Shown piece after piece: positions 5,525 through 36,233 of a stretch of 55,764 bases of DNA; the stretch's first letter is position 1, and each line of letters opens with the position of its first letter. The DNA comes from a virus: IMG/VR virus record IMGVR_UViG_3300033402_000018; one strand, given 5' to 3'. The notes under the pieces are model-generated. The model was not told where the DNA came from, made no database searches, and saw only the letters and a program-made list of their open reading frames with translations. The translations under genes and the position numbers were made by a program.

Positions 5525-6106
5525 GTGGGCATGAGTCAATATGATCGTGTCTACCTAGACCAATGCTACGCACTCGCCAAGAACAGCACATGTGTGAAGG
5601 CCAAAGTTGGCGCTCAAGTGCGCGGACCCTACGGCGACATGTCTGACCACCTGCTAGGTCAAGGTTTTAACCAATCCCCCAATCCTGAGTTTGCTGACTG
5701 CGGCAAGCTGTGCGCCGGGGGCATCCGCTGCGGCATTAAGTCCGGTACTCGCGCTGAACTCTGTTACGCCGTCCACGCGGAGCAATACGCACTACTTCAG
5801 GCCGGATCGCTCGCGAAAGGGGCCACGATCTATGTCGCTTCCTACGATGACAAAGGCGAGAAACGCCTGAAGAACGCTGAACTCCCGCTGGGGCACCCGA
5901 TGCACGGTTTCTACTGTTCGGTGTGTGCTAGGCTCATCTGGGCTGCGGGAATCGCACGTGTAGTGACGGACGGTGTAAAGGGCCCGGTTGTTCTCAGCCT
6001 GAATGACATCTGGAAGACCTCTTACGGCGTGGCGGACAGTATTGACAAGAAGTACAAATCCTGCGGTTGCGAAGTAGGCAATTGCATCTGTGATATTGAG
6101 ACCTAA
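5525..6106 (+). CDS. cytidine/deoxycytidylate deaminase-fold zinc-binding protein
   Basis: CYAVHAEQYALLQAG (H-A-E zinc/catalytic motif) and downstream YCSVCARLI (PCxxC motif). Confidence 0.55.
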   Translation: MGMSQYDRVYLDQCYALAKNSTCVKAKVGAQVRGPYGDMSDHLLGQGFNQSPNPEFADCGKLCAGGIRCGIKSGTRAELCYAVHAEQYALLQAGSLAKGATIYVASYDDKGEKRLKNAELPLGHPMHGFYCSVCARLIWAAGIARVVTDGVKGPVVLSLNDIWKTSYGVADSIDKKYKSCGCEVGNCICDIET

Positions 6107-6639
6107 TGTCAAACCTCGCTGAACTCAAAGACCTGCCCAAAGAGCGGAAGAAGTATGTCGTTGGCTTCTTGATTGATCCCACGTTGTCTAAGGTGGTGCT
6201 CGTGCGTAAGAACCGACCTGACTATCAACGCGGTCTGCTCAACGGCGTGGGCGGGAAAGTCGGAGACACGATCCTAGACGAAACCACGGAAGAGGCGATG
6301 GCCCGTGAGTTCCAAGAAGAGACGGGTGGGGTTGATCTCAACTGGCGGCGGTTCTTGCACATGATGACACCCCGGTCAGACCTGACATTTTTCTACGCCA
6401 TCGGCAATGTTCACTGTGTCCGAACACAGACCGACGAAGAAGTAGCGGTGTATGACATTTCCGATGTGATGGATCGCTGCGATACGATGCCCAATGTTCG
6501 CTGGTGCATTCAGATGGCACGCTCTATTGAGTTCGGTGAGCACGCGGATTACTTTGAAGTGGCTGAGATTTTGGAGACAGACTTACCAGCGAATTTTCAT
6601 TTCATCCCGGATGCAGCGCTTGAAAAAGAAGACCTATGA
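6106..6639 (+). CDS. NUDIX hydrolase
   Basis: Nudix box GGKVGDTILDETTEEAMAREFQEETG (GX5EX7REUXEEXGU). Confidence 0.8.
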   Translation: MSNLAELKDLPKERKKYVVGFLIDPTLSKVVLVRKNRPDYQRGLLNGVGGKVGDTILDETTEEAMAREFQEETGGVDLNWRRFLHMMTPRSDLTFFYAIGNVHCVRTQTDEEVAVYDISDVMDRCDTMPNVRWCIQMARSIEFGEHADYFEVAEILETDLPANFHFIPDAALEKEDL

Positions 6640-7574
6640 ACATTGAATCGAAACTGATACTTGCCAGCAAGAGCGAAGCAACAGGCATCACCCTTTACAC
6701 GTTTGTGCTCACGTACCCACGTGTCATCCTAGCTGAAGTAAACACGCATCGAATGCTCAGCCGCAACACCGCGTCATCTCGCGCTATTCCAGCCAAGAAA
6801 CAGCGGGAACGCGTGCTTACTGATCCGTTCGTGCCTGTCACAATTGGGGCGAATCAGAAAGGGATGCAGGCTGGTGAAGAGCTTGACGGCTGGCGTCGGT
6901 TTGTTGCGATCAACACGTGGAAACTTGCACGCTACCCAATGGTAGCGGCGTCGTGGGTACTCGACAAGGTTGGTGCGCACAAGCAAGTTGTGAACCGCAT
7001 TGTGGAGCCGTGGACGTTCACGCAGCAAGTTGTGACTTGCACCGACCTGAAGAATGTCTTCAAACTGCGCAACCACAAAGATGCAGAGCCACACTTTCAA
7101 ATCATCGCGAAACAGATGCAGATGCAAGCAGAGTGGGCCGAGAAATGGTTTAACACCCTTTCGTGGAACTCGGAGAACGCGCTTGACCGTAGATTAGAAA
7201 TCAACAACCAACTTGGTGTTGGTACTCTTCAGGTGCTAAAGCCGGGGGAGTGGCACATGCCGTTTGTTGATGAGAAGGACATCACAGACACAATCCTGAA
7301 CTCCATGCTGCATGACAGCACTGACGAATCCCTGAAGAAAATCAGCACAGCACGCTGCGCACGTGTCAGCTACTTTCTACCGGAGAGCGGCAAAAGGTCT
7401 GACCCTAAGCGTGACGTAGAGCTTTGCAATAAACTGTCCGGCTCCGGTCATTGGAGTCCGTTCGAGCACGTAGCCACGCCGACAAAAGAAGCGGATTACA
7501 TTGGCAATTTTAAGGGCTGGAAGCAGTATCGTAAAGAGTATCCGCAAGAGTCTGGAGGGGACCGTGGGAATTGA
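6636..7574 (+). CDS. thyX: flavin-dependent thymidylate synthase ThyX-like
   Basis: HRMLSRNTASSRA matches the ThyX RHRxxSxxxxSxR signature; size 312 aa. Confidence 0.6.
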   Translation: MNIESKLILASKSEATGITLYTFVLTYPRVILAEVNTHRMLSRNTASSRAIPAKKQRERVLTDPFVPVTIGANQKGMQAGEELDGWRRFVAINTWKLARYPMVAASWVLDKVGAHKQVVNRIVEPWTFTQQVVTCTDLKNVFKLRNHKDAEPHFQIIAKQMQMQAEWAEKWFNTLSWNSENALDRRLEINNQLGVGTLQVLKPGEWHMPFVDEKDITDTILNSMLHDSTDESLKKISTARCARVSYFLPESGKRSDPKRDVELCNKLSGSGHWSPFEHVATPTKEADYIGNFKGWKQYRKEYPQESGGDRGN

Positions 7575-7608
7575 AGGCTGGGGCAGATCATTTGGGGCGA
7601 TTCAAGCG

Positions 7609-8094
7609 ATGGAGAAACGCCTTGCGAAGCAGCGCGAGTGGGACATCTACTACCTGAACATGGCCCGTTACGTCTCCACGAAGTCGAAGGACCCAAGCAC
7701 GCAAACCGGAGCGTGCATCGTGCGCCCGGACAACTCTTTGTGTTCCATTGGCTTCAACGGCTTCCCCAAAGGCATGAATGACGCCCCGGAGCTTTACGCC
7801 AACCGTGATGTAAAGTATTCTCGCACAGTGCATTGCGAAGTCAATGCCGAAATCTTCACCAGAGAAGACCTGAAGGGGTTTACGCTTTACACGTGGCCTT
7901 TCTCATCTTGCGACCGTTGCGCGGTGACGATGATTCAGGCGGGAATTGCACGTTTTGTGTTTCCAACCATGCCGCCAGAGAAGGCGTCCCGTTGGGCTGA
8001 AAACATGGCGATAGCGCAAGGCTACATGCGGGAAGCTGGGCGGGAAGTGGTTGAGATACCGTATGAACAGATTCCCAAGGTTGTGCTAGAATAA
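7609..8094 (+). CDS. dCMP deaminase (ComEB-like)
   Basis: HCEVNAE and SCDRCAVTMIQAGI motifs (HAE / PCxxC); start placed at first ATG after upstream stop (alternative GTG ~7563). Confidence 0.7.
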   Translation: MEKRLAKQREWDIYYLNMARYVSTKSKDPSTQTGACIVRPDNSLCSIGFNGFPKGMNDAPELYANRDVKYSRTVHCEVNAEIFTREDLKGFTLYTWPFSSCDRCAVTMIQAGIARFVFPTMPPEKASRWAENMAIAQGYMREAGREVVEIPYEQIPKVVLE

Positions 8095-8099
8095 ACGAT

Positions 8100-9131
8100 A
8101 TGGCTAAAAAACAGGTTCGAACAACGCGTAAGGAAGATAAGCCGAGACCGTACAAGGTCGATTATTTCGAAGAGAACGAAATGATCGACAACGACAAGGC
8201 GTTGGTCCGTAGCCGTGTCGTCCGCGCCGTTACGTCTGCGCAGGCGTCCAATCTTGTGATGCTCGAAGATGGGTGGGAATCGCGTAACCGATTTATTGTT
8301 CGTGCGTCTCGCTTTTATGGGGAGTTGAAACAAGCGCAGGAAAACAAGTACGTCCCCGTTGAAGACCTGTTCCCTGAAAAGAAGGCACTCGATGTCATGG
8401 CGAACATCGAGGTTATCCGCGCCGCCGCTAAATCCCGTACAGCCGCTCCCGTAGCGCCAGCCACTCCAGTTGCATCAAGCAACACGTGCCGCTGGCATGG
8501 CGATCAGTACCTTGATGCTTCAGGTCGTTGCACGCGTCTTGACCCATCCTTCATGTCTGCGGTGTGCGCTCCGTCTGTGCCTACGTCGGGGCCGGACAGT
8601 CAGGCAACCAAGGATGTCATGGCGGATTTCAATGGCATGATGTCTCATGACGAGCACGAACAGAGAATGGACAACTTCGTGCCGGACATCACGCCGGGAC
8701 TAAGAACTTCACAGTACCAAGCCGCAACGGGAAACAAGACTCCAATCGTTCGGACAGCGGACGGGCAACTTGGTGTGCTTACTCCGAGCCTTTCGTTCCC
8801 CGACAAGCCAGTGGTGCCTACACAGCCAGCCGTGTTTGACGGTGACGAGCACCACATTGATCTGGACGAGTGCGCACCAGTGATTCATCCCGCGCCGGAC
8901 GCGGGCTGTTCATGTGAGCCGCACGGCGAGACTGATCCAAGCTGTGTGGAACACGGCATTACAGCGCCGCCGATTGACACAACGGGTCAGGTGCTCACAT
9001 CTATGGGTACTTCGGCTCCATGGCAAACCCCGGACGACCCGCTCCCTACGTGGGCGAAGGTGCTCCTATTCGGGGGTGCGGCATTCTTCGCAGTGGTGAT
9101 AGCACTCGCAGTCCTGAAGTGTGGACATTAA
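8100..9131 (+). CDS. hypothetical membrane-anchored protein (Ala/Pro/Thr-rich, C-terminal TM helix)
   Basis: 343 aa; C-terminal LLFGGAAFFAVVIALAVL hydrophobic helix. Confidence 0.5.
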   Translation: MAKKQVRTTRKEDKPRPYKVDYFEENEMIDNDKALVRSRVVRAVTSAQASNLVMLEDGWESRNRFIVRASRFYGELKQAQENKYVPVEDLFPEKKALDVMANIEVIRAAAKSRTAAPVAPATPVASSNTCRWHGDQYLDASGRCTRLDPSFMSAVCAPSVPTSGPDSQATKDVMADFNGMMSHDEHEQRMDNFVPDITPGLRTSQYQAATGNKTPIVRTADGQLGVLTPSLSFPDKPVVPTQPAVFDGDEHHIDLDECAPVIHPAPDAGCSCEPHGETDPSCVEHGITAPPIDTTGQVLTSMGTSAPWQTPDDPLPTWAKVLLFGGAAFFAVVIALAVLKCGH

Positions 9132-9219
9132 ACAAGTGGGTCAATGACCACTTGTTCGAGTTGGTAATTGCGTTGTTGGTTTTGCCCGTGGTTATTGCGT
9201 ATCTTTTCGGTCATCACTG

Positions 9220-9426
9220 ATGGAACAGCACTACTGCCAACGAATCCCAAAGCCGGGGCCAAACACGCTTTCTCTGACCTCCATAGAAGGCGACCCGGAC
9301 GCCTGTGGTAAGATCGCGCACTTCAAATACAGACCAGAGGACCCATACGATGTCTTTGAGCCGGACAAAGTTTGGTGGTTGTGTGCGGAGTGCTATGATT
9401 TTGCCATGATCTTCGACAAATTCTAA
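9220..9426 (+). CDS. hypothetical protein
   Basis: 68 aa ORF, CxxC motif. Confidence 0.35.
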   Translation: MEQHYCQRIPKPGPNTLSLTSIEGDPDACGKIAHFKYRPEDPYDVFEPDKVWWLCAECYDFAMIFDKF

Positions 9427-9460
9427 ATTTCTAAGATTCTAGCCCTCTTGTAGAGGGCAA

Positions 9461-10027
9461 ATGGTTTATTTCATCATCGAAGCATCGCATCTTTTCCGCG
9501 CCGGGACAAAGTATCAGACCCAGTTTTTCGTGATGGATGTTGTGAATTTCATCCATCGCAAGTTCAGGGGTTTCTGCTCCGGCTGCCCAGAGCCTTGCCC
9601 GGAAATGGTGCCACATGTGATTGTTCTTCACGGCTCTGTTAAGCAGGAACAGGGCGACCGCTATGCCGCCGCGCTCGAACGCCACGGCGTGAAGGTTGTG
9701 CGTATGCGCCCGATTGAGTCGGACAGCGCAGGCAAATGGTTTTTCAAGCCAGCTTGGTACATGCACAAAATGATGGGGACGGACATCCCTGAAGGCTCTG
9801 ATGTTGTTCTGGTGGGGTTTCACAATATCCGCTACCTAAAGTTCCTCGAAAAGTATGCCACTCGATACAACCTGCATGTGGCCGCCTTTCAAACGCCAAG
9901 CGCCAAGCAAGGGATGATGCACGTTCCTGATGAGTTTAAGCCATTACTCAAAAGCGTAATTGACCTTGACATGGATGTCCCCGGCATCAAAGCAGAGTTC
10001 AAGAAAAAGCTCAGTAATAAAGCTTGA
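9461..10027 (+). CDS. hypothetical protein
   Basis: 188 aa ORF following a hairpin; no clear motif. Confidence 0.5.
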   Translation: MVYFIIEASHLFRAGTKYQTQFFVMDVVNFIHRKFRGFCSGCPEPCPEMVPHVIVLHGSVKQEQGDRYAAALERHGVKVVRMRPIESDSAGKWFFKPAWYMHKMMGTDIPEGSDVVLVGFHNIRYLKFLEKYATRYNLHVAAFQTPSAKQGMMHVPDEFKPLLKSVIDLDMDVPGIKAEFKKKLSNKA

Positions 10028-10130
10028 GCGGTTCACGGGCCTAAAGCTTCGTTGGTTAGCACCCCCCGATCTTATGTTCGCTCGCCAGAAGACCGGGAGA
10101 AGATGCAACCCGTGGACCGTCAAGGACTCA

Positions 10131-10515
10131 ATGAACGCTAACGAATACCAGACGCTCGCTGAAGTTACCGAGAGCAAAGATTTTGAAGCAATCGGTAAAC
10201 GCATGTCAACCATCCGTAGCATCCGTCTTCTCCACGCGACAACTTGGCATTTCCAGCGAATGCGGTGAAGTCGCTGACGCACTCAAGAAGCATATCTTCT
10301 ACGGCAAGGAACTGGACGTAGTAAACGTTGCCGAAGAGATCGGCGATATTTGCTGGTATCTGGCGCTCGCTTGCAATGAGCTTGGTATGGCATTCGAGCA
10401 GGACATCTTGGAAGTCAACATCGCCAAGCTGAAGGCCCGTTACGGGGACAAGTTCTCCGAGCACGCGGCCATGCACCGTGACCTCAACAAGGAACGTGCT
10501 ATACTCGAAGGATGA
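10131..10515 (+). pseudogene. mazG: MazG-like nucleoside triphosphate pyrophosphohydrolase interrupted by an apparent +1 frameshift (~10240-10250)
   Basis: Frame 0 encodes MNANEYQTLAEV...IRLLHA (then stop); frame +1 continues LGISSECGEVADALKK...EEIGDICWYLALA...KLKARYGDKF. Fused, this reproduces the MazG RLLHAALGLAGEAGE / EELGDLLW motifs. AAGGA RBS before 10131. Confidence 0.6.
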
Positions 10516-10922
10516 GCACAGTAATTGAGCGCGGCTTCAGCGGCCCCGTTTGCGGAGAATGCGGGTCTGTCCTGCCAGTGGCGGGAGACTACAACCGTGT
10601 TTGTCTGAAGTGCAACCCTGAAAAAGAAATCTACTGGTTTGACGAGCGCGAACTGAGAGTGCTCCGCGAGATGATGGATGCGAAAGAGATGTCGGCGAAG
10701 GCTGTTGTCCGGCATATTTTCCGTCTCGGTCAGATGTGCGATCTATTCATCTCCCAAGGCTATAAGATCAGGTTTGAATCACCTGATGGCGGGGAGACAG
10801 TAGACCCGTTAGCTGGCCCGCCAAAGATGGCAGAGATGCCATACTGCGGCAATCCGCTGTGTCATCGCACGAGCGGCTTAACGATTCATAATCCTGATTG
10901 CCCGGAGTACGAATACAGATGA
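10512..10922 (+). CDS. hypothetical zinc-ribbon protein
   Basis: CGECGSVLP...CLKCNP and C-terminal CGNPLCH...NPDCPEY Cys clusters. Confidence 0.5.
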   Translation: MSTVIERGFSGPVCGECGSVLPVAGDYNRVCLKCNPEKEIYWFDERELRVLREMMDAKEMSAKAVVRHIFRLGQMCDLFISQGYKIRFESPDGGETVDPLAGPPKMAEMPYCGNPLCHRTSGLTIHNPDCPEYEYR

Positions 10923-11052
10923 GCTACAAAGACGACCAACTCGCGTTCAAAGTTATTCTAGGGGTCATCGTTACGATAATCGTTGGCACACTGGTGGTTT
11001 ATGCGACTGCTGGCGCTGTCATTATCCATTTCGTCAAGAAGTTCTGGTAACC

Positions 11053-11253
11053 ATGAAGATCAGGGTTAAAATCACACCCGCACGCTTGGAACGCCTGATG
11101 GCTGGCGAGCCGCTCAATTACGCCGTGGGCAACACGGAAATTGAGATCGTCATGGCAGATGACGTTTTTTCCAAGTTTGATGCGATTTTCGAGAAGATTT
11201 CCAAGATCGTCAACAAGACGGTGGAGAAGATTGAATCCGCAATCCTTAAGTAG
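11053..11253 (+). CDS. hypothetical protein
   Basis: 66 aa ORF. Confidence 0.4.
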   Translation: MKIRVKITPARLERLMAGEPLNYAVGNTEIEIVMADDVFSKFDAIFEKISKIVNKTVEKIESAILK

Positions 11254-11255
11254 GA

Positions 11256-11846
11256 TTGCCCATGCCTCGTTACATCGACATTGACCAAGAGCGTTTGTCC
11301 CACCTTCATGAGGGTTTAGAGCTTCTGGAGATGGTTGACCGTGAAGCAATCGCGGGACTGGACTTGTGCGTTTACGGGATCACCAACAACGCGTCCATTC
11401 TTGATTCCGCTAAAGAAGCCATCGCTGATTCTGAAGAAGTAGCGGAGCAGGACGTAGCCCTTACTGAGATTGCTGTAGCCATTCCGATCTCGTCTGACAC
11501 TATCTACGCGCTGAACGGTTCCGGCATTCGCCTCAGCCGCGAGGATTTTGCATACATGGGTTCCGGTGGTGAAGGTGTCCGCACCATGACTTTCGCTTTC
11601 GCTCACTTCAAATCGACAGTGACCCTGAATTCATTTTCCAAGCTCGCAATTGCTTCGTCTGATTCGTGGCTGGATGATTTCTTGCGTAAGGAAGGCTCCG
11701 GGCAGCAAGCGAAGGTCACTCCCGCTGTTCACCGCACCGAAGAAGCCACAGTTCCCGGCGCTCCCCCGGCACCAGAAATTCCGAAACGTACATCCGTTAT
11801 GGGTGGGCCCCGTCTGGCGTCCTTGATTGACGAATTTCTTGCATGA
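11256..11846 (+). CDS. hypothetical protein
   Basis: 196 aa acidic ORF. Confidence 0.5.
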   Translation: MPMPRYIDIDQERLSHLHEGLELLEMVDREAIAGLDLCVYGITNNASILDSAKEAIADSEEVAEQDVALTEIAVAIPISSDTIYALNGSGIRLSREDFAYMGSGGEGVRTMTFAFAHFKSTVTLNSFSKLAIASSDSWLDDFLRKEGSGQQAKVTPAVHRTEEATVPGAPPAPEIPKRTSVMGGPRLASLIDEFLA

Positions 11847-12298
11847 AACTAACGCGGCAACAGCGTGAGCAACTCCGCATGAAGTTTGGCGGGAAGTGTG
11901 CCTACTGCGGCTGCGATCTTCCTGAAAAAGGCTGGCACGCCGATCATGTTGAGCCTGTCTACCGTGAGTGGTGGAAAAGCACCAAATGGTGGAAAGAAGC
12001 GCACGGCACCAAGTGGTCGGTCAACGAAGCTGGTAACCTTGAGCAACACGCTGTCCCGCTGGAGAAACCGGGGTTCGAGCGCCCGGAAAATGACACACTG
12101 GAGAACCTGTTCCCGTCCTGTGTTCCCTGCAATCTGGACAAGCACGCGAGTCCCTTGGAAGTATGGCGGCAGCAGCTTGAAGGTCGCGTTGATGTATGTC
12201 GTAGAAACTATTCTGCATTCCGCCACGCCGAACGTTTCGGTTTAGTGCAGCAAATCCACAAACCTGTGGTATTCTGGTTTGAGCAATACTCCGGCTAG
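11843..12298 (+). CDS. HNH endonuclease
   Basis: CAYCGCDL...HADHVEPV...NLFPSCVPCNLDK (HNH with zinc-binding Cys pairs); ATGA overlap. Confidence 0.75.
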   Translation: MKLTRQQREQLRMKFGGKCAYCGCDLPEKGWHADHVEPVYREWWKSTKWWKEAHGTKWSVNEAGNLEQHAVPLEKPGFERPENDTLENLFPSCVPCNLDKHASPLEVWRQQLEGRVDVCRRNYSAFRHAERFGLVQQIHKPVVFWFEQYSG

Positions 12299-12351: not shown

Positions 12352-13185
12352 ATGGCGAACAAACCCAGAACCGACTCGCTGGGTGACAGAATGAAGCGCT
12401 ACGAAGCAACCACGCGCTTCCTGTTGCCGCGCCGCACTTACACAATTCTTCGCGTTGATGGTCGTGCGTTCCACACGTGGACTCGCGGGCTTGACCGTCC
12501 CTATGACCGCAACTTCATGGCGTGCATGAACGAAGCCGCGCTCGAACTTTGCCAGCAGATCGCGGGAGCGCAGTTCGCTTACGTGCAGTCCGACGAAATC
12601 AGCCTGTTGGCTGTGGACTTCCTTGACATCAAAACCGAGCCGTGGTTTGAAGGCGGCGTGCAGAAATGGGCCAGCGTCGGCGCATCCATCGCAACGATGG
12701 CGTTCAACAATTGCTTGCTTCGGCTGAAGGGGGCAAACCTCGACGAGTCTGAGCTTAAGATCACCAAGAAGCTCCCGAACGCCACGTTCGACGCCCGCGT
12801 GTTCACCATCCCAGACTTGGTGGAAGTGGAAAATTATTTCGTGTGGCGGCAGCAGGATGCGGAACGCAACTCCGTCACAATGCTGGCGCAGAGCTACGCT
12901 TCCCACAAGCAACTCATGGGGAAAAATCGCGCCGCGCAGCATGAGATCATCCACAAAGCCGGGGACAATTGGGCGAAGCATCCTGTGCGTTTCAAGCATG
13001 GCGCTGTGATCCGCCGTGCCGCTGAAAACGAAGTCTGGACGGAAGTCGGCACCCATCATTTCAACTGGGTTGTGGACGAAGACACCCCAGCCTTCACCAA
13101 AGACCGCGCTTACATCCGTGGTCTGGTTCCTGTTGTTTGGGACAACGACCTTCTGGTCAGAAAGGCGGCAGCGAATGGAGAATAG
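12352..13185 (+). CDS. tRNA(His) guanylyltransferase Thg1-like protein (TLP)
   Basis: DRMKRYE, TILRVDGRAFHTWTRGL, FAYVQSDEISLL match the conserved Thg1 N-terminal palm-domain motifs. Confidence 0.7.
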   Translation: MANKPRTDSLGDRMKRYEATTRFLLPRRTYTILRVDGRAFHTWTRGLDRPYDRNFMACMNEAALELCQQIAGAQFAYVQSDEISLLAVDFLDIKTEPWFEGGVQKWASVGASIATMAFNNCLLRLKGANLDESELKITKKLPNATFDARVFTIPDLVEVENYFVWRQQDAERNSVTMLAQSYASHKQLMGKNRAAQHEIIHKAGDNWAKHPVRFKHGAVIRRAAENEVWTEVGTHHFNWVVDEDTPAFTKDRAYIRGLVPVVWDNDLLVRKAAANGE

Positions 13186-14954: not shown

Positions 14955-15210
14955 AGAAATCGAACGATTGGTGATGGAGCTATCCCAATACAGTCCTTTG
15001 GCTAACGCCGTTCTCCGGCGAGCGCGGTTTGACGGTTGGGATATTCGCCGGACGATAGGTGTAATGGCATACGTCCTGCTTGTAGACGAGCAGGAACATT
15101 TCAACCGATTGGTTGAGGTCCAAGCTCAAAGCGCACGCCCCTTGCTCATCAAACAGCACTGTTCAACCTGCACTTGCACAGACAAAAGCACGGGTTACGA
15201 GGACTTATGA
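14947..15210 (+). CDS. hypothetical protein
   Basis: ATGA overlap; 87 aa. Confidence 0.4.
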   Translation: MTEEIERLVMELSQYSPLANAVLRRARFDGWDIRRTIGVMAYVLLVDEQEHFNRLVEVQAQSARPLLIKQHCSTCTCTDKSTGYEDL

Positions 15211-15491
15211 CCAAAGAACAGATCGAGAAGTCAGTTGCGGACGCGGCGCTAGTAACCGCAAGAATTATCATGGAGAGCAAGACCGAACTCTTGGTCAACT
15301 ACTTCAAAGAAGAAGCCGCGAAGAATGATGCTGCTATCGGTATCCAGATGTGGGGGCAGAAGCAAGGCTGGACTCAGGAGCGAATCGCCATAGCAATCGC
15401 GTTCGCACTGATGGTGCAACAGCGCGTCGTTGATAAGGCGCACAGAAGGGAGCAAAATGCCGACAGTACCAGCAATGAAAGCAACAACTGA
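15207..15491 (+). CDS. hypothetical protein
   Basis: ATGA overlap; 94 aa. Confidence 0.4.
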   Translation: MTKEQIEKSVADAALVTARIIMESKTELLVNYFKEEAAKNDAAIGIQMWGQKQGWTQERIAIAIAFALMVQQRVVDKAHRREQNADSTSNESNN

Positions 15492-15825
15492 ACAAGAGCG
15501 CGAAGTGATGCGCAAGATGATCGGGCGCAGTGGGGACGCGAAAAGCTGGAAAGAGTGTCCTTGCGGCTGGTTCTATCAGGGGGCGCGTTGTCCTGATAAA
15601 GTGTGCCAGCTATGGAAGAAAGCGCACGGTAAAAAGACCGTGAAAATGTACCTTTACGGCAACGACGAAACAAACCTTGAGAAGGGTAGAGAGCTTGGTC
15701 TGGAAGGCGTAGCCCTTGAAACTTTCAGCGGATGGGACTATGAGATCGAGTTCGACGTCGAAGTGGACATGGAAAAGGGAGAGGTCAAAATACTTTCCGT
15801 GGATGGTCACGATCTCAAGTATTAA
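15457..15825 (+). CDS. hypothetical protein
   Basis: ORF with CPCGW...C motif; alternative start 15475. Confidence 0.45.
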   Translation: MPTVPAMKATTEQEREVMRKMIGRSGDAKSWKECPCGWFYQGARCPDKVCQLWKKAHGKKTVKMYLYGNDETNLEKGRELGLEGVALETFSGWDYEIEFDVEVDMEKGEVKILSVDGHDLKY

Positions 15826-15830
15826 GTTGC

Positions 15831-16373
15831 ATGGCGCAGGACGTTAATTTCAAGAAAACCGCAGCAACAGAGACGCAGTACAACACAGGCGCACAGCGGG
15901 ACAATCGAGTAGGTAAAGGGGCGTTTCACTGGATGCCGTGGGACGCCCTGTTTTGTGTCTCCCGCATCTATGAGCTTGGCAACAAAGGCCGGAGCAAAAC
16001 CGGAGACGGCAACGACCGTAATTGGGAAAACGGGATGCCGCTCATTGACCTGTTGCAGAGCGCGATCAATCACATCTCAGCCCACATCTCAGGCGACCGC
16101 AGCGAGCCGCACATCTCACAGGCAATCTGGAACCTATTGAACTACCTTCAGACTTCGATCTGGGTTATCCTAGGGTTCCGCCCCAAGGAACTCAACAAGC
16201 TGCCAGACCATCGCCATGCTTGGAAGCCGGGGGATGAGCCGCCATGCCCGTTGTCACCACAAGAGATTGAGTGGTTACAGTTCAAGGGTGTGATCCCAAA
16301 AGAGCCAGAGTTGCATGATTGCGGGCCTGAACCAGCCGTTCTTAAGGTGGTATTGCCCGGATCGGAACGCTGA
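15831..16373 (+). CDS. hypothetical protein
   Basis: 180 aa ORF. Confidence 0.5.
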   Translation: MAQDVNFKKTAATETQYNTGAQRDNRVGKGAFHWMPWDALFCVSRIYELGNKGRSKTGDGNDRNWENGMPLIDLLQSAINHISAHISGDRSEPHISQAIWNLLNYLQTSIWVILGFRPKELNKLPDHRHAWKPGDEPPCPLSPQEIEWLQFKGVIPKEPELHDCGPEPAVLKVVLPGSER

Positions 16374-16416
16374 TCTGGAATTTAGCGTATTCGTAGCTCT
16401 TTTGTAGGACTCACGA

Positions 16417-19125
16417 ATGCCCTCCCTTCTTCACAAGCTGAGCTTCTTTGACCCCGAGGTCGGACGCTACTTCGTCGTAGCGAGCGACGGTTTTTACTGG
16501 AAAGAAGCCAAAAAATCACCTGAAGACTCCAAGGTTACAAAGCTGCTGGCTCAATACGGCTGGCAACTCCGAAACGGCAATGACGTGTGGTTGATCTTTA
16601 GACGCCCACGGACGCCGGGGGAGTTGTTCGTAATTCGTGGGGAGAAACGCTGGTATTATGATCTCCCAGATTCCGACCTGTTTGACGTAGCGGCGGAGGG
16701 TAGGGGTCTCGACAGCCTTCAACAGGCAATCGAGAGCGGTAAGCTGCCGGGAGCAAAAGCCAAGGGAATGACCGCCAGCCCCACCACAACGGCCGTCAAT
16801 AACGCCGGAAATGGTCACGGCTCCATGCCGGACGACCAGCTTGAACCAGATACCAAGTACGGCATGATGGGCCGACCGGACTACGGTTCCGGGTACACCG
16901 GAATCATGAACGAGTTGAATGCTGAAGATGATGAATGGAGCAAGGAAGCGTCCATTCTGGTTCTGAACGGCAGCGTAAAGATGGGTTCCACGACAGCGGA
17001 AACCTCGCTCTACGTCACAGGAGCGGAGTATCAAGGCTTGACGCTCACCAAGTTTACCTTCAGCCCTGACCGTCACAAGGCAAAGATTTTCCCAAAGCTT
17101 ACCGCGCAGAATCTCAGTCAACAGATTTTCGGTAAGTTCGCCACGGTTGCTCGTGTCGTGCTCGCCGCCGACTATCGCGAGATGTTTAAGGCTACCCTTG
17201 CGCTCGATCCCAAGTACGATAAAGTAATCAACCGTGAAATTGAGTGGGCTAAGCGCGTCCTCAAGAAGCAGGATCGCATCGTATGGTATCTCCGTTGGGT
17301 TCGTTTGGCTTGCGTGCATGACATGCTTGGCAGGGCGCATCTGGACGAGAACCCGGCTGGCGTTACGGCGGCTGCGGCTGCTCCCGCCCCGGCCCCAAAT
17401 CAGCCCCAGCAGCCCGCGCAGCAACAAAAGAAGCCGCAGACACGCACAGAGCAGATCAAAGCGTTGTACCAGCAGTACGACCGCGAGATGACGAATAAGA
17501 GCGGCGGCGGTGAACTTGTCACGCTGACTGACTTGGTTCACATGAAGCAGAGCCTTGAACACTTCTACTCACTGCACTCGCCAGAGATTGACAACTATAG
17601 CCCCAAGTACGAAAGCTGGAATGATCTCTACGGAAAATTCTCCGTGTTCGAGCAGGCTTGGAAGGAAGAAGCCGGGAAAGCACTCAAACCCAAAGAGGGT
17701 GATGAGATTTGGATTCAGTTCCCGGACGGCTGGGCGTGGTGGCATTTGCCACGCGCATCATGCGAAGACGAAGCTGCGGCGATGGGTCACTGCGGAAACT
17801 CACCTAATGCCAAAGCCAAGGGTGTTTCAATTCTCAGTTTGCGTAGACCGATCAAACGCGGCAATGAGACTCGCTGGGAGCCGCATCTAACTTTCATCCT
17901 GCACGGCACTGTGCTGGGCGAGATGAAAGGTAAGGGAAACGACAAGCCAGCGCCACAGTACCACAAGTACATCATCCCTTTGCTGCTGGATAAACGTATC
18001 ACTGGGGTTGGCGGCGGCGGTTATCTCGCAGAGCACAACTTTTCAATGAACGATTTGACGCCGGAACAACGCGCAGAAATCTCCAAGGCGAAGCCATCAA
18101 TGGGTATGAGCCTAAGCGGTTACTATAAAGCCTACGGCATGGACGATACATTAGCCGCCAGAATCAAGGCGATCCTTGGCATGGACTCGGCAACTTATGA
18201 TCCACAGTGGGGTTTTGCCCTGCGTTCGTGGGATACGCGTGAAGATTTCCTCGATGATGTGGGTGATTCCGAAGCATCGAAGGCCGCCACGTTCGTCCAG
18301 ACCGGGGAGCATGACTACGATGACCCAGACATTGACGAGTTGACCGACCTACTGGACGGCTTTGATGAAGTGGAACTGCATAACCTAGGGTTGCAGTTGC
18401 AGTACGATTATCCACGCGAGATGCGTGAGTGGTACGCGAACTTCAATCCAAATGATCGTGACGCGCTTAAGATGGCGCTTACGGACCTGTACAACGCGTA
18501 CATCAAGGGAGCCAAAGCACAGCATTCAAACCAGCGCAAAGGCTTGGAAAAGAAGATCAAAGAACTGGAAGCCAATGTGTCTGAAGACCCGGCGGCAGCG
18601 AACGAAGTTACTCCGCTGAAAGAGAAGCTGAAGAATTTGCGTCTCGATAAAGTCTGGGAGAAAGTTCCAGCACTGCTTGAATTGTATTCTGCTTATTTGT
18701 CAGGCGGGCCCGATCAAAACACAGTGGATAAACTACTGCGTGAAGCGCTCGAACGTGGCGTGGACGAGAGCGGGACTGAGATTCGTCGTACCAAGGACGG
18801 CAAGTGGCTGCAACTTTTGAGCGAAGAACAGGCAGTTGCCGACGCCGAAGCCGCGCAGAATCGTCACGGCACCGGAGGCTACTATGAGGCCCCGGAAATT
18901 AACGTGAGCATTCCGTATGATTGGGATGAGTTCGATGAAGAACGCGCAAGGGAATCCGCGAAGGAATATTTCAGTCGTCCGCCGAAGCGCCCGGAAGTTG
19001 ATAAGCGGCAGCGCCGTTTGTTCCCGGAACCAAAGACGGAAGAGTCCGCAAAGCGGCACGGAATCACCGTTTCCCATGCAAAGAACCCGCTTCTGCGCCG
19101 CAAGTCGTTAAAAACAAAGGTGTAG
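16417..19125 (+). CDS. large hypothetical protein (902 aa) with low-complexity AAAAPAPAPNQPQQPAQQQKK linker
   Basis: Single uninterrupted 902-aa ORF; no recognised catalytic motif; possibly virion-associated. Confidence 0.6.
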   Translation: MPSLLHKLSFFDPEVGRYFVVASDGFYWKEAKKSPEDSKVTKLLAQYGWQLRNGNDVWLIFRRPRTPGELFVIRGEKRWYYDLPDSDLFDVAAEGRGLDSLQQAIESGKLPGAKAKGMTASPTTTAVNNAGNGHGSMPDDQLEPDTKYGMMGRPDYGSGYTGIMNELNAEDDEWSKEASILVLNGSVKMGSTTAETSLYVTGAEYQGLTLTKFTFSPDRHKAKIFPKLTAQNLSQQIFGKFATVARVVLAADYREMFKATLALDPKYDKVINREIEWAKRVLKKQDRIVWYLRWVRLACVHDMLGRAHLDENPAGVTAAAAAPAPAPNQPQQPAQQQKKPQTRTEQIKALYQQYDREMTNKSGGGELVTLTDLVHMKQSLEHFYSLHSPEIDNYSPKYESWNDLYGKFSVFEQAWKEEAGKALKPKEGDEIWIQFPDGWAWWHLPRASCEDEAAAMGHCGNSPNAKAKGVSILSLRRPIKRGNETRWEPHLTFILHGTVLGEMKGKGNDKPAPQYHKYIIPLLLDKRITGVGGGGYLAEHNFSMNDLTPEQRAEISKAKPSMGMSLSGYYKAYGMDDTLAARIKAILGMDSATYDPQWGFALRSWDTREDFLDDVGDSEASKAATFVQTGEHDYDDPDIDELTDLLDGFDEVELHNLGLQLQYDYPREMREWYANFNPNDRDALKMALTDLYNAYIKGAKAQHSNQRKGLEKKIKELEANVSEDPAAANEVTPLKEKLKNLRLDKVWEKVPALLELYSAYLSGGPDQNTVDKLLREALERGVDESGTEIRRTKDGKWLQLLSEEQAVADAEAAQNRHGTGGYYEAPEINVSIPYDWDEFDEERARESAKEYFSRPPKRPEVDKRQRRLFPEPKTEESAKRHGITVSHAKNPLLRRKSLKTKV

Positions 19126-19168
19126 AAAGTTCACCAAATACGCCGATTCCATCGTATACTAGAGTGGA

Positions 19169-19798
19169 ATGACATTACTCGAACGAGCAATTGAGATCGC
19201 CGTCCACGCCCATGCTGGGCAGATGGACGAAGACGGCTTGCCGCACATCATCCACAGCCTTGAAGTCATGTTCGCTGTGAAACGCCGATTCAGCGGTGAC
19301 CGTTGCCTCGCGCCGATCCTGAAGAAATACACCGAAGAAGAACTACTCATCGCCGCCGTCTTGCACGACACCGTGGAAGATTCCAAGGGTGCGATCACTC
19401 TGGACTACATCAAGTCCGTGTTCGGTGAGAACGTGGCTGAGATCGTAGACAGCGTGACGCGGCGCGGTTTAGGCGAAGGCGAGACGAAAGAGTTTTACCG
19501 GGACTTCATCTATCGCGCCAGACTCAACGAAGGCGGTGCGATCATCAAGCTGAGCGACCTTCACCACAACTTCGGACGCCTGAACAAAATCGCCGCCAGT
19601 AAGAAGAAGTGGCGCGAGAAACTGGAGTTCAAGTACGGAATATCCATCGGCGTCATCACCGACAACATCTCATGGGAGCAAGCATCTTGGAGTGTCCAAC
19701 ACGACGGCCCCCATGCTCACTATTACATTGCTGACCCTAACGGCAAGAAGATCGAAATCCCCGAAGAAGAATTCAATCAGATTTTTGCAAAAAAGTAA
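19169..19798 (+). CDS. (p)ppGpp hydrolase, SpoT/RelA-type HD domain (small alarmone hydrolase-like)
   Basis: AHAGQMDEDGLPHIIHSLEV and AAVLHDTVEDS match the RelA/SpoT hydrolase HD-domain motifs; 209 aa with no synthetase domain. Confidence 0.7.
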   Translation: MTLLERAIEIAVHAHAGQMDEDGLPHIIHSLEVMFAVKRRFSGDRCLAPILKKYTEEELLIAAVLHDTVEDSKGAITLDYIKSVFGENVAEIVDSVTRRGLGEGETKEFYRDFIYRARLNEGGAIIKLSDLHHNFGRLNKIAASKKKWREKLEFKYGISIGVITDNISWEQASWSVQHDGPHAHYYIADPNGKKIEIPEEEFNQIFAKK

Positions 19799-19854
19799 TT
19801 GAGCCGAAATCGAAAGATGTTAGACTGGCATCTAAGTTTTAGAGGGAACGCCTT

Positions 19855-21417
19855 ATGATGACACCGCAGGAAGAACGAATTCTCAACGCGGCACGCCAAA
19901 AGATCGAAGAGCAGCAGGAATTGCTCAGACGCCTGACCGCCCCAGCCTACCACCTTGGGATCGTCTGCGGTGTGTATCCGAAGACCGTGGTTGTGGACAC
20001 AGGTTCCCAACTCTTTGAGCTTGACCGCATCGAAGGCGGACCAGACATCAAGGTTGGTCAGGGCGTTGACATTCATCCGCAGACCGGGCAGATCGCCAAA
20101 GTTTCAGACTTCGTTTCCTACGGAAGCACCGGGACGGTATCGCAGATCGACGGCAACATCATCCAGATCAGTGTTCCGTCCGGCCTCATCACCACCGAAT
20201 ATTCGCTCATCCCGGTAAGCATCGGCGACAAGATCGTGATGAACAGCACGAACCACGTCATCATGAAGAAGCTGCCGACCGCGTCGAAGTATGCCTTCAA
20301 GACGAGCGCCGTGCTGGACTGGAAAGACATCGGCGCTTGCGAAGACGCGAAAAAAGAACTTATCGCCGCGCTCGAAACGCCTTACACCGCATCGCCGCTG
20401 TTCAAATTCTTCAACAAGGATCAGATCAAAGGCGCACTACTTTGGGGACGCCCCGGCAACGGCAAGACTTTGCTTGGACGAGCCGCCGCTGGCGCACTGG
20501 CGCGTATGCACGGCGTGGAAGCTAGGGACTCAGGCTTTATCTACATCAAGGGGCCAGAAATCCTTGACAAGTACGTTGGCGAAACTGAATCTCAGATTCG
20601 CGAAGCTTTCGCCTATGCCAAAGCGCACTTCAAGAAACACGGCTATCCGGCTGTCATGTTCGTGGACGAAGCGGACGCCGTAATGATGCGCCGTGGTTCG
20701 CGCACCGCATCCGGCATGGAAATGACCATCGTCCCGCAGTTCCTTTCTGAGATGGACGGCATCGAAGACAGCGGCGTGTTCGTGCTGCTGGCTACCAACC
20801 GTGCGGATACGCTCGATCCGGCAATCATTCGTCCCGGTCGCTGCGACCGCCGCGTCCATGTGGCACCACCCAACAAGCTCAACGCCCCGGAGATTTGGGA
20901 CATTCACATGCGCAAAGTGCCTGTAACTAACGGCGTGAGCAAAGAACAGTTGATCCAGAGCGTGAATGACACGCTGTTCAGCGAGCAATTTCCGCTCTAT
21001 TTGATTGACACGCCCAACGGACGCAAGACGTTCAGCCTTGGGAATCTTGTGTCAGGCGCTATGATCGCGGGAGCCGTGGAACGGGCATCAGCCATTGGCA
21101 TTGACCGTAATCTCATGGCCCTGTGCGGCACAACTCAGCCGACGCAGGATCAGCTTGCAAAGGTTGACCCAAAGAAATTTGACGGTCTCTCGCAAGGGGA
21201 CTTCACCGCCGCGCTTGCCGCCATGCACAAAGAGCAGTACGGCATGAACCATTTCGATGAACTGCGTGAGTTTATCGACATGCAGAAGCTCGAAGTCACG
21301 TCCATTGAGCAATGCCACGATGGGCAAAAGATCGAACGCCCGAAGCCGCAGCCGCGCAAGGAACCAGAGATCATCGGTGTTATTCCAATGCCGACAGGGA
21401 AGAAGTTCGACGCATAA
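19855..21417 (+). CDS. proteasome-associated ATPase family AAA+ protein (Mpa/ARC/PAN-like)
   Basis: N-terminal coiled coil then OB-like region (YHLGIVCGVYPKTVVVDTGSQLFEL). Walker A GRPGNGKT. ARC-specific insertion FIYIKGPEILDKYVGETESQIR (compare Mpa [22 protein letters not shown]). Walker B VMFVDEAD. TIVPQFLSEMDGIE...LLATNRADTLDPAIIRPGRCDRRVHV (compare Mpa TVVPQLLSEIDGVE...ASNREDMIDPAILRPGRLD). Confidence 0.8.
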   Translation: MMTPQEERILNAARQKIEEQQELLRRLTAPAYHLGIVCGVYPKTVVVDTGSQLFELDRIEGGPDIKVGQGVDIHPQTGQIAKVSDFVSYGSTGTVSQIDGNIIQISVPSGLITTEYSLIPVSIGDKIVMNSTNHVIMKKLPTASKYAFKTSAVLDWKDIGACEDAKKELIAALETPYTASPLFKFFNKDQIKGALLWGRPGNGKTLLGRAAAGALARMHGVEARDSGFIYIKGPEILDKYVGETESQIREAFAYAKAHFKKHGYPAVMFVDEADAVMMRRGSRTASGMEMTIVPQFLSEMDGIEDSGVFVLLATNRADTLDPAIIRPGRCDRRVHVAPPNKLNAPEIWDIHMRKVPVTNGVSKEQLIQSVNDTLFSEQFPLYLIDTPNGRKTFSLGNLVSGAMIAGAVERASAIGIDRNLMALCGTTQPTQDQLAKVDPKKFDGLSQGDFTAALAAMHKEQYGMNHFDELREFIDMQKLEVTSIEQCHDGQKIERPKPQPRKEPEIIGVIPMPTGKKFDA

Positions 21418-21426
21418 GGGGAAGTC

Positions 21427-21639
21427 ATGAGCCAGAGACAGATCGAGAGACCGCAAGAGAAAAAGCCACGTCCGGCTGGCAATCAAGGGCCAACACTGGA
21501 TGTCAACATTGACATTGGCGGCGAAGAAGTTGATGACATCTTGCGCGATCTGGATGTGATCGAGCACCCGGAAAAATACTCGCAAGAACAGCGCGATTGC
21601 CAGTGTTTCCGCCCGTCAAGGGGCGGTGGATTCAGATAA
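21427..21639 (+). CDS. small acidic protein, candidate Pup-like (prokaryotic ubiquitin-like) tag
   Basis: 70 aa; disordered basic/Gly N-half then acidic amphipathic segment GGEEVDDILRDLDVIEHPEKY resembling the Pup helix (EETDDLLDEIDDVLEENAEDFVRAY); immediately downstream of the Mpa-like ATPase; C-terminus ends RGGGFR, not a canonical GGQ/GGE. Confidence 0.4.
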   Translation: MSQRQIERPQEKKPRPAGNQGPTLDVNIDIGGEEVDDILRDLDVIEHPEKYSQEQRDCQCFRPSRGGGFR

Positions 21640-21956
21640 TGCAGAAACGAGAGCAAAGACCGTTGCTGCCCGTCAGCAAACGTGGTCAAATCTCGCCGAT
21701 GCAGGTTGAAGTGGCGTCGGCGGACAGCGTGCTGCATGTTCTCGACAGCTACAGGAAGAACCTTGCGGACTTGCTCCGTAAGACAGACGTAGCCGAAAAA
21801 ACGAAAGAATCTCACTGTGACATCAATTGTGAGTGTCCGCCGTGTATTTCCGGCGATTGCTCGAACTGTGTTGTTGACCGATTGAAGAAAACGCGTCAGT
21901 TCGGTGATCCAGCCATTGTTGATGCGTGCAACCAATATCGCGGGGGGAAAATGTGA
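21639..21956 (+). CDS. hypothetical Cys-rich protein
   Basis: TAATG overlap; CDINCECPPCISGDCSNC cluster; ends QYRGGKM. Confidence 0.4.
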   Translation: MQKREQRPLLPVSKRGQISPMQVEVASADSVLHVLDSYRKNLADLLRKTDVAEKTKESHCDINCECPPCISGDCSNCVVDRLKKTRQFGDPAIVDACNQYRGGKM

Positions 21957-22264
21957 ACGAATTTCTCAAACTGGTTTACCTCAGCATTGCGGTTGGTGCG
22001 ATCAGCTTGGTCATCACGAAGAGCCAGATTTTCAATGCCTTTCACGCTTGGCTTGAGAAGCGTTCTCTCTTTCTCGAAGACATGTTATCCTGTCCTTGGT
22101 GTACCAGCCATTGGGTTTCCCTGTTCTTCGTTCTCGTCTACCATCCACTGGTGGTAAACGTCTGGGCACCGCTTGACTACTTCGTGAGTATCATGATTGT
22201 GGTCGCGCTGTCTTCAATAACTGCAAGATTGATCTGGTCGGCGTATAAGCCGATGATGGGATAG
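21926..22264 (+). CDS. small membrane protein
   Basis: Three hydrophobic helices; alternative GTG start ~21953 overlapping the upstream stop. Confidence 0.45.
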   Translation: MQPISRGENVNEFLKLVYLSIAVGAISLVITKSQIFNAFHAWLEKRSLFLEDMLSCPWCTSHWVSLFFVLVYHPLVVNVWAPLDYFVSIMIVVALSSITARLIWSAYKPMMG

Positions 22265-22274
22265 CCGGAGGAGT

Positions 22275-24353
22275 ATGACTAACAAAGAACTGGTGCAGAT
22301 GTTCAACGCCGATCTGGAAGCAGCGCGGGACGCCTACTACAAGAAGGCGGAACCGATCATGACCGACGCGGAATATGACGCTATGGAAAAGAGTCTCCGC
22401 AATCTCATTACCGTGTTTCCGGGACTCGCCGAGTTCGCACCTGTCCTGAAGACGGTCGGCTCTGACCTTACGTCCAGTGGGCGCATCAAACACGCTGTCC
22501 CGATGCTCAGCATCGAAAACCAGTACACTGAAGAGGATTTCACTGGTCAGTATGACAAGTGGGGCGCGAACATGCCTGTTGTGCTGGAGCCGAAGTTTGA
22601 CGGCATCAGCGTCTCCATCCTGTATCTCAACGGCGTGCTTGAACGGGCGCTGACTCGCGGCGACGGCACGTCCGGCGAGAACATCACCGCAGCGGTTAAA
22701 GCGGTCAAATCCATCCCCCAGACTCTTCCGATAGATGTGTTCACCAGCCAATGCGAGATTCGCGGTGAGCTTGTGATGGCAAACGCCACACTCGAACGCA
22801 TCAACCGGGAAGCGGCGGCGATAGGCGGTAAGCAGTATTCCAGCACGCGCAACTTGACTGCCGGAACGATGAAGCAGCGTGACATGGACATCGTTGCCAG
22901 TCGAGACATTTTGCTCATGCCGTGGGATGTGCTTAGTGTCAGCGCTTGGAAAGATGGCAAGCAGTTATTGCCGGACAGCCGTTACGAGCGCTTGCTTCTA
23001 CTGAGCGAACACGGCTTTGAAGAGCCAAAGGGTATTCGTTGCTTCCTTCGGGATGCGATCATCCCGGCGCTTCACATTCTCCTGAAGCACAACAAAGAGC
23101 GTGCAGTTAATTGTGACGGCGTTGTCATGAAGGTAGATAGTGTGACCGCGTGCAAAGAGCTTGGCAACGGCTCCAAATACACGAACTGGCAGACCTGCTT
23201 CAAACCACAGTCTGCGTCCGGCACTACATACTTGCGTGAGATTCAATGGCAAGTGGGGCGCACGGGCGTCATCAGTCCGGTTGCGAAATGTGACGTGGTT
23301 GTCTTGGCTAGTGCTAACGTCACCAGTGCCAGCTTGAACAACATCACGTTCATCCGCAAGATGGGCCTGAAGCTGGGCGCGAAAGTTGAAATGCTGCGCT
23401 CCGGCGATGTCATCCCGCAGATCGTGCGCGTCATTGATGACGGTGACGAAGAGATCAACCCTCCAACTCACTGTCCTGAATGCAACAGTCTGACGGAGTT
23501 GCGGGACGAAGGCGGGCAAGGCATTATCCAGTGCTTCTGCACCAGCCCGTTCTGCCCCGCACAGATCATAGGCTACCTTTCGTTCGTCGGCAGTCGTGAC
23601 GTTCTGGAGATCGACGGTCTGGGGCCGGAAATGGCGCGTAAGCTGGTCGAAGGTGAGTTCACTCGCGATCTTGCTGAGCTTTATGAATTTCAGCAGGACA
23701 TGATGAACATCCTCACGAAATTTGACGAGGAAACACTGATTCGCGGCGGACGCAAAAAAGGCTTTGACGCCACTCTTCCGAAGATGGTTCGGTCATTGGA
23801 GAAGGCGAAAACCGCGCCGTGGGAACGCTGGATCAAAGCGCTTGGCATTCCGATGATTGGCGAGACGCTGGGCAAGGTGGTCGCGTCTACTCTCGATCTT
23901 CAGGAAAAGAGCATGGCTACGCTGGATGTTGACCTGATCCTTTTTGCCGGGAAAGAAGTAGACGGGTTCGGTGAAGCCAAGATGAGCGCGATCCGAAGCT
24001 GGGCGGAACGAAACGGTGAACTCTGCCGGAAGCTCTACGGACTTGGTATTCGTCCTACTCCGATGGAAAAGGTGGTGGTCGCCGAAGGCGCACCACTGAA
24101 AGGTGTCGTCTTCTGCATCACCGGGGAGTTCAGCGAAGACCGCGATGCCCTGACGAAGAAGCTGGTTGCGCTTGGCGCGGAAGCGAAGTCCGGTGTCACT
24201 AAGAAAATCAACCTCTTAATCGTCGGGGAGAGCGCCGGAAAAACAAAATTGACCAAAGCCAAGGAACTTGGCATCAAACAGGTAGGCAAAGAGTGGCTGG
24301 AACAGGCGCTTGGCGGACTTAAGCCTGATACCTTCGCCGCTGAGAGGGCGTAA
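22275..24353 (+). CDS. ligA: NAD+-dependent DNA ligase LigA
   Basis: N-terminal Ia-like domain (EAARDAYY...DAEYDAM), KxDG adenylation motif (LEPKFDGISV), OB and Zn-finger (CPECNS...C..C), HhH region, C-terminal BRCT (VFCITGEFS...LLIVGESAG). Confidence 0.9.
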   Translation: MTNKELVQMFNADLEAARDAYYKKAEPIMTDAEYDAMEKSLRNLITVFPGLAEFAPVLKTVGSDLTSSGRIKHAVPMLSIENQYTEEDFTGQYDKWGANMPVVLEPKFDGISVSILYLNGVLERALTRGDGTSGENITAAVKAVKSIPQTLPIDVFTSQCEIRGELVMANATLERINREAAAIGGKQYSSTRNLTAGTMKQRDMDIVASRDILLMPWDVLSVSAWKDGKQLLPDSRYERLLLLSEHGFEEPKGIRCFLRDAIIPALHILLKHNKERAVNCDGVVMKVDSVTACKELGNGSKYTNWQTCFKPQSASGTTYLREIQWQVGRTGVISPVAKCDVVVLASANVTSASLNNITFIRKMGLKLGAKVEMLRSGDVIPQIVRVIDDGDEEINPPTHCPECNSLTELRDEGGQGIIQCFCTSPFCPAQIIGYLSFVGSRDVLEIDGLGPEMARKLVEGEFTRDLAELYEFQQDMMNILTKFDEETLIRGGRKKGFDATLPKMVRSLEKAKTAPWERWIKALGIPMIGETLGKVVASTLDLQEKSMATLDVDLILFAGKEVDGFGEAKMSAIRSWAERNGELCRKLYGLGIRPTPMEKVVVAEGAPLKGVVFCITGEFSEDRDALTKKLVALGAEAKSGVTKKINLLIVGESAGKTKLTKAKELGIKQVGKEWLEQALGGLKPDTFAAERA

Positions 24354-35728: not shown

Positions 35729-35729
35729 T

Positions 35730-36122: not shown

Positions 36123-36127
36123 AGTTT

Positions 36128-36213: not shown

Positions 36214-36233
36214 AATTTGCGGCTGTTAAATTT

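Follow-up and report, generated by a model that had tools for sequence, protein, structure and literature searches.

Introduction

Phage MazG-like proteins (PHROG 229, Pfam PF03819) have been described from Pectobacterium phage phiTE, Cronobacter phage CR9, Vibrio phage ICP1 and a cyanophage. The only phage MazG to have been tested biochemically comes from a cyanophage; its preferred substrates are dGTP and dCTP, and (p)ppGpp is not hydrolysed (PMC6850273). Solved structures of small MazG and related all-alpha NTP pyrophosphohydrolases include T. maritima 2yxh, B. subtilis YpjD (2gta), iMazG (2q73), DCTPP1 (7mu5) and PRA-PH (1yvw). These share a helical bundle and acidic metal-binding motifs with the family that we describe here, although they are distant from it, at 14-26% identity. 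Unlike the solved structures, our family has two additional short helices at the N-terminus and, at the C-terminus, a conserved segment, KLKARYGDKF...ERxILE.

Among programmed +1 frameshift sites, the closest described systems are the bacterial prfB site, CUU-UGA-C, and the yeast Ty3 site, GCG-AGU-U. At the Ty3 site the +1 shift takes place without P-site re-pairing, with GCG in the P site.

In this work we describe a phage mazG-like gene that is interrupted by a single base. The window, by which we mean the whole stretch of viral DNA that was analysed, is a JGI contig of 55,764 nt. Its mazG-like gene is of the same family as the phage genes listed above, and the intact allele has in common with them the ExxE and EExxD motifs and the all-alpha fold, as far as the latter is predicted. 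Unlike these relatives, the copy in the window is broken by a one-base insertion and encodes no full protein in one frame. Judging from the sequences of sibling contigs, we consider it highly probable that a gene for a MazG-like all-alpha NTP pyrophosphohydrolase gained a G at position 10238 in some members of the phage population. In mechanism there is nothing new here: the gene belongs to a well-known family of phage MazG-like pyrophosphatases, in an uncultivated phage.

The split reading frame

A preliminary description of this locus had proposed that a MazG-like pyrophosphohydrolase at 10131-10515 is divided between frame 0 and frame +1. This is what we find: the gene lies on the + strand and runs for 45 codons in frame 0 before it continues in frame +1. 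A chance arrangement of two unrelated frames is excluded, because homology runs across the junction. The features of the locus are as follows.

10122..10126, + strand: Shine-Dalgarno-like AAGGA, 4 nt 5' of the mazG ATG (from sequence)
10131..10268, + strand: frame-0 mazG remnant, with ATG at 10131-10133 and TGA at 10266-10268 (from sequence and translation)
10183..10515, + strand: mechanical +1 open reading frame (ORF) of 110 aa (P0002/P0121), annotated as MazG protein by gene callers
10238, + strand: inserted G that causes the frameshift (base-by-base comparison with the intact contigs L033, L034, L035 and L040)
10240..10515, + strand: frame +1 part of mazG, Q37-G127 and stop, with ExxE (E43, E46) and EExxD (E68, E69, D72)
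10512..10922, + strand: 136-aa gene with N-terminal CxxC...CxxC and no family match (from sequence and family scans)

Since AAGGA precedes the mazG ATG, the 45-aa remnant is expected to be translated. It reads MNANEYQTLAEVTESKDFEAIGKRMSTIRSIRLLHA, followed by nine out-of-frame residues, TTWHFQRMR. Its native part comprises 36 residues (M1-A36) and includes Y6, T13, E14, S15, R24, R32 and H35, all of which are invariant in a 45-sequence alignment of the family. Downstream of the junction, the residues invariant in these 45 sequences include G39, E43, G45, E46, E68, E69 and W75, among others, and D72 is nearly invariant.

The +1 frame ends at the stop codon 10513-10515, where the C-terminus reads ERAILEG. 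The ORF at 10183-10515 carries RQLGISSECGEVADALKK, and from 10240 onwards it reads QLGISSECGEVADALKKHIFYGKELD...ERAILEG. TTG 10183 is the sole start codon of this frame upstream of 10300, and the first 19 residues of the 110-aa ORF are out-of-frame sequence.

The lesion can be placed exactly. The extra base is the third base of the codon GCG at 10236-10238, and the junction reads CAC GCG ACA ACT TGG in the window versus CAC GCA CAA CTT GGC in the intact allele (CACGC[G]ACAACTT in the window, CACGCACAACTT in the intact allele). The inserted G is flanked by C and A, and therefore lies in no homopolymer. Within 10225-10250 the string CGCGACAAC marks the +G allele, and the pair CACGCGACAAC and CACGCACAAC would tell the +G and intact alleles apart.

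The preliminary description was thus right that one base is in excess and that deleting it restores the gene, since the intact allele equals the window minus G10238. Its details need amendment: the base lies 7 positions upstream of the estimate of about 10245, the intact protein has 127 rather than about 128 amino acids, and the repaired junction reads HAQLG in the intact allele, not HATLG as had been suggested.

Family and fold

The assignment to the MazG-like pyrophosphohydrolases, also made in the preliminary description, stands. The repaired protein scores 29.3 bits against Pfam PF03819 MazG (cutoff 22), and the +1 ORF alone scores 29.4 bits. Residues 1-127 of the intact allele match PHROG 229, "MazG-like pyrophosphatase", with E=1e-39. 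Residues 13-126 of the repaired protein align, across the junction, with annotated phage MazG-like proteins, and these are 50-60% identical to the intact allele. The ExxE ... ExxD metal-binding motif of the family is present in the +1 frame of the window. An uninterrupted frame is found in P0122, the intact allele, whereas in the window it is broken at G10238.

The AF2 model of the intact allele has a mean pLDDT of 89.9 and is all helical, with helices at residues 3-13, 18-25, 28-57, 63-84 and 88-104. A profile search of the PDB returned MazG-family matches (E=3e-4 to 9e-3), and a single-sequence search of the PDB gave marginal matches only. With Foldseek the best PDB matches were PRA-PH, the MazG-related 2yxh (TM 0.52), YpjD, MazG and DCTPP1, with weak E-values (>=0.07). 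The predicted model and these matches place the intact protein with the MazG, YpjD, iMazG, PRA-PH and DCTPP1 group of all-alpha NTP pyrophosphohydrolases.

The intact allele and its relatives

The intact allele, P0122, encodes 127 aa in one frame (...LLHAQLGISSECGEV... / ...IRLLHAQLGISSECGEV...), and falls into one 90%-identity cluster with the 110-aa +1 ORF of the window. It is encoded by the following contigs, which come from other samples and are ~99.95% identical to the window.

L033: Logan SRR9711195
L034/L040: JGI 3300033405
L035: ENA ERZ27256913, 88 kb

In L033 and L034, the only changes relative to the window over 6.3 kb are the absence of the G at 10238 and 2 SNPs. For L035, compared over 20.5 kb, there are 9 SNPs and two indels, of which one is that at 10238 and the other, a single T at 26267, is intergenic.

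A comparison with orthologs had been suggested in the preliminary description. Among the best 120 of 887 homologs, all are full length in one frame except P0002, the truncated ORF of the window. The mazG gene is likewise intact in L045 (JGI 3300072492 Ga0642625_20321), a distinct phage that is syntenic with the window (ThyX - dCMP deaminase - ... - MazG - ... - Thg1). The outgroups are thus unshifted, and the inserted base is the sole difference between the +G and intact alleles inside the gene, as is to be expected of a derived frameshift.

Beyond these contigs, close relatives are scarce. Neither 9400-11300 nor 1-25000 gave a megablast match against INPHARED phages, and we therefore conclude that there is no close cultured relative; the nearest INPHARED phage record is 60% identical at the protein level. 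Identity to the IMG/VR relatives L001-L031 reaches no more than 59%, and they are uninformative on the indel. A junction pattern fitting both alleles, which does detect the window and the fetched loci, had no match in scans of JGI metagenome_contigs and IMG/VR, and these collections are therefore without the contigs described here.

These contigs have a bearing on annotation. The 110-aa call of an "NTP pyrophosphatase" is a truncated remnant and is properly annotated as a frameshifted mazG allele, and P0122 (127 aa) can serve as the intact reference for this phage lineage.

Natural variant or assembly error

Is the extra base real? Single-base indels are the classic artefact by which genes are split, and otherwise near-identical contigs carry the intact allele. 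The true genome could, then, have an intact mazG to which a G was added by the sequencer or the assembler. The evidence that bears on this consists of assembled contigs. Of these, at least four assemblies, made by different assemblers, have the +G allele.

Assembly 1: the window itself, JGI contig, 55,764 nt
Assembly 2: Logan SRR9711196_22490, 20,355 nt (its intact sister from SRR9711195 has 20,354 nt)
Assembly 3: a 128,007-nt ENA/Logan contig
Assembly 4: JGI 3300034091 Ga0326724_0245027

Base by base, the same extra G is found in L032, L039 and L041. Several of the +G contigs might share one library, and Logan, ENA and JGI versions of a single library are non-independent samples. Some of the four assemblies may thus come from one read set, and the samples that can be counted firmly number at least two, SRR9711196 and 3300034091. 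Even so, an extra G that is common to JGI, Logan and ENA assemblies, from at least two samples, is hard to reconcile with an error.

The backgrounds on which the allele is found also differ. At site 7332 the +G allele is accompanied by C in the window and by T in L032, and the intact allele by C in L033 and by T in L035, so that all four combinations of 7332 and 10238 occur. In L039 the +G allele is found together with A at 11107, a state that elsewhere is found with the intact allele.

The sequence around the site speaks against an error as well, with the G standing between C and A and outside any homopolymer. A context-dependent, systematic error is unlikely because all of the libraries share the same flanks, and yet sister libraries yield the intact allele. 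Nor is the assembly of the window prone to indels, given that there is just one further indel relative to L035 in 20.5 kb, and that it is intergenic. Finally, base 1 of the contig Ga0374055_0176961 from JGI 3300035696 (L042) corresponds to window position 10239, directly after the variable G. A start at this point fits a branch in the assembly graph, which a true polymorphism would produce.

We consider a sequencing or assembly error to be very unlikely. The +G allele recurs across assemblers, its SNP backgrounds differ, a contig ends at the site and the site is not a homopolymer; for these reasons the assembled contigs lead us to read +G as a real polymorphism that segregates in a natural phage population.

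The start point of L042 is, in addition, consistent with both mazG alleles being present side by side in JGI 3300035696. The phage genome itself is probably about 128 kb in size.

No support for programmed frameshifting

A different explanation is that the split gene is read through by a programmed +1 frameshift, in which the ribosome skips one base near GCG-A-CAA and so makes full-length MazG from the +G allele. This has some appeal. A ribosome that skipped A10239 after GCG would make a product identical to the wild-type protein (HAQLG), and this GCG, the final codon to be read in the right frame, is also the P-site codon of the Ty3 precedent. Any trans-frame peptide would span ...LLHA(Q/T)LGISSECGEV..., with LLHAQLGISSECGEVADALK or LLHATLGISSECGEVADALK as the junction peptide.

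The likeness to the prfB and Ty3 sites is limited to the downstream part in the +1 frame and to this GCG. In other respects the window differs from both: the shift is not conserved, the A site holds neither a slow codon nor a stop codon, and re-pairing is absent. Genomes that are ~99.95% identical are without the extra base, the intact allele being present in the same phage population, and both syntenic L045 and the other homologs among the best 120 of 887 have a single frame. The sequence CAC GCG ACA ACT TGG leaves the P-site tRNA without re-pairing in the +1 frame, and the codons ACA and ACT are used at ordinary rates in this genome (8.7 and 8.9 per 1000 codons). At the shift site there is neither a stop codon nor a rare Arg codon in frame.

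Stimulatory elements were not found either. Unlike programmed +1 sites, the window has no upstream Shine-Dalgarno stimulator at the proper distance. The predicted RNA fold of 10225-10330, at -23.1 kcal/mol, is no better than that of shuffled sequences (mean -25.5, z=+0.75), and a search of 9000-12000 against Rfam gave no match. With conservation, a shift-prone site and a stimulatory element all absent from the sequences compared, programmed frameshifting is not supported, and we regard it as extremely improbable.

Two other ways of reading through the split were considered. Transcriptional slippage is ruled out, as the site has no homopolymer run. A suppressor tRNA is ruled out by the tRNA complement of the window, where we find none, the tRNAs being ordinary (four tRNA-Ser and one tRNA-Leu).

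The case illustrates that the microdiversity of phages in metagenomes can mimic recoding sites, here with the 1-bp indel in mazG and, in another part of the window, a 430-bp deletion, and that sibling assemblies resolve such cases.

Predicted effect on MazG

What would the +G allele produce? Ribosomes that start at ATG 10131 would read 36 native codons and 9 wrong ones before the stop at 10266-10268, and the main product is expected to be a 45-aa fragment that has none of the catalytic residues. The part with ExxE and EExxD is in the +1 frame and would be obtainable only from the weak internal start TTG 10183. The product of this start would lack the first two helices and the beginning of the third, and would have 19 unrelated residues instead. 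In the AF2 model the junction, between residues 36 and 37, falls within helix 28-57, which also bears ExxE.

It might be argued that the allele is not null, and that a 110-aa N-truncated MazG made from TTG 10183, or an association of the fragments, leaves some activity. The +1 ORF does hold both metal-binding motifs and is detected by Pfam (29.4 bits), GAGAG lies ~9 nt 5' of TTG 10183, and the +G allele persists in several samples. Even so, a TTG that has a weak Shine-Dalgarno sequence and lies within translated sequence makes a poor start. In the protein made from it, helices 3-13 and 18-25 would be missing altogether and helix 28-57 would lack its first third. Gone as well would be the seven invariant residues, among them the T13-E14-S15 motif, R24, R32 and H35, and the unrelated residues mentioned above would stand in their place. 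Residual activity is in our judgement highly improbable.

The insertion parts the seven invariant residues of the N-terminal region from the acidic residues needed for catalysis, and it is on this ground that we consider the +G allele of mazG, as predicted from its sequence and from the model, to be most likely null or else severely impaired.

The downstream gene

The mazG stop codon overlaps the ATG of the next gene (ATGA, 10512-10515), and an SD-like GAAGG abuts that ATG. Based on this arrangement, translation of the 136-aa gene may be coupled to that of mazG and be reduced by the frameshift; the premature stop, 244 nt upstream, may lower translation of the ATGA-overlapping gene. There is also a promoter-like match at 10478-10505, which could make the 136-aa gene independent of mazG translation.

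The 136-aa protein begins with a CGEC...CLKC pattern. A similar pattern is found in the close MazG homologs P0001, P0003, P0008 and P0016, which have a C-terminal CxxC...CxxC (zinc-ribbon-like) extension. We asked if the CxxC tail of the fused homologs P0001 and P0003 is homologous to the 136-aa protein; the BLASTP matches are not significant (E=0.10-0.17), and on that account we do not propose a fusion/fission relationship.

Age and possible maintenance of the insertion

Between the window and the L045 ortholog, mazG has pN=0.18 and pS=0.80 (the latter saturated), with both halves of the gene alike. The gene is under purifying selection across the lineage. Apart from the inserted base, the two alleles of mazG are the same, with no further decay in the +G copy, and for this reason the break is recent. 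A recent pseudogenisation, in the form of a natural variant that segregates beside the intact allele, is supported by the contig sequences. Of the explanations raised in the preliminary description (sequencing error, recent pseudogenisation and programmed frameshifting), this is the one that we favour.

How the loss of MazG is tolerated is a matter for speculation. The window also encodes a NUDIX protein, a MazZ-like PF18909 protein and an HD-domain protein, which may explain the tolerated loss, in that these nucleotide hydrolases might buffer it.

A further idea is that +G is kept at appreciable frequency because loss of MazG helps on some hosts, or because it down-tunes the ATGA-coupled gene. 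One example would be a host defence that senses MazG itself or the altered nucleotide pool that MazG brings about. The occurrence of +G in several samples, on recombined SNP backgrounds, is compatible with a maintained allele and gives no direct support for one; we think this idea very unlikely. If it were true, the locus would act as a naturally polymorphic on/off switch for an auxiliary gene of nucleotide metabolism. If both alleles stably coexist, they would amount to a small natural experiment on the dispensability of phage MazG.

Other features of the window

The window is dense in genes for nucleotide and nucleic-acid metabolism (5525-8094, 12352-13185 and 15831-24353). These and some further genes are given below.

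5525-6106: dCMP deaminase-like
6106-6639: NUDIX
6636-7574: ThyX-like
12352-13185: Thg1-like 3'-5' nucleotidyltransferase
15831-16373: PF18909 dATP/dGTP diphosphohydrolase N-domain protein (MazZ-like)
16417-19125, + strand: 902-aa ORF, flanked by the MazZ-like and HD genes
19169-19798: HD_4 protein
19855-21417: AAA ATPase
22275-24353: NAD-dependent DNA ligase
35639-36311, + strand: five tRNA genes, tRNA-Ser x4 (GCT, CGA, GGA, TGA) and tRNA-Leu(TAA)
50013-52460, + strand: 815-aa ORF

The pair of a MazZ-like and an HD protein recalls the gene kit of Z-genomes (2-aminoadenine); the one 363-aa ORF that was scanned for PurZ is not PurZ. The 902-aa ORF had no match in Pfam or PHROGs and the 815-aa ORF had none in PHROGs, the one collection it was compared with. 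The four tRNA-Ser genes cover the UCN and AGY serine codon families, and such a full serine set is unusual for a phage.

The population varies at other places too. A 430-bp segment of the window, 15271-15700, is missing in JGI 3300033405 Ga0326727_10026174 (L036). It is flanked by TGGA microhomology (15271-15274 and 15701-15704), and without it the beginning of the ORF 15207-15491 runs in frame into the last part of the ORF 15457-15825, so that a 62-aa gene results. Both ends of the segment are also breakpoints of Logan contigs from SRR9711196. The phage population is probably polymorphic for this deletion too, which would be its second structural variant. A stretch of 28 bp at the 3' end of the ligase gene holds four SNPs (24050, 24062, 24063 and 24077) that separate the window from L035, L036 and L037, and the tight cluster suggests a small recombination patch.

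In L045, a gene at 1464-2132 with a faint match to NUMOD3, a DNA-binding motif of the homing-endonuclease type, lies between the ThyX-like and dCMP deaminase genes; the window has no gene at the matching position.
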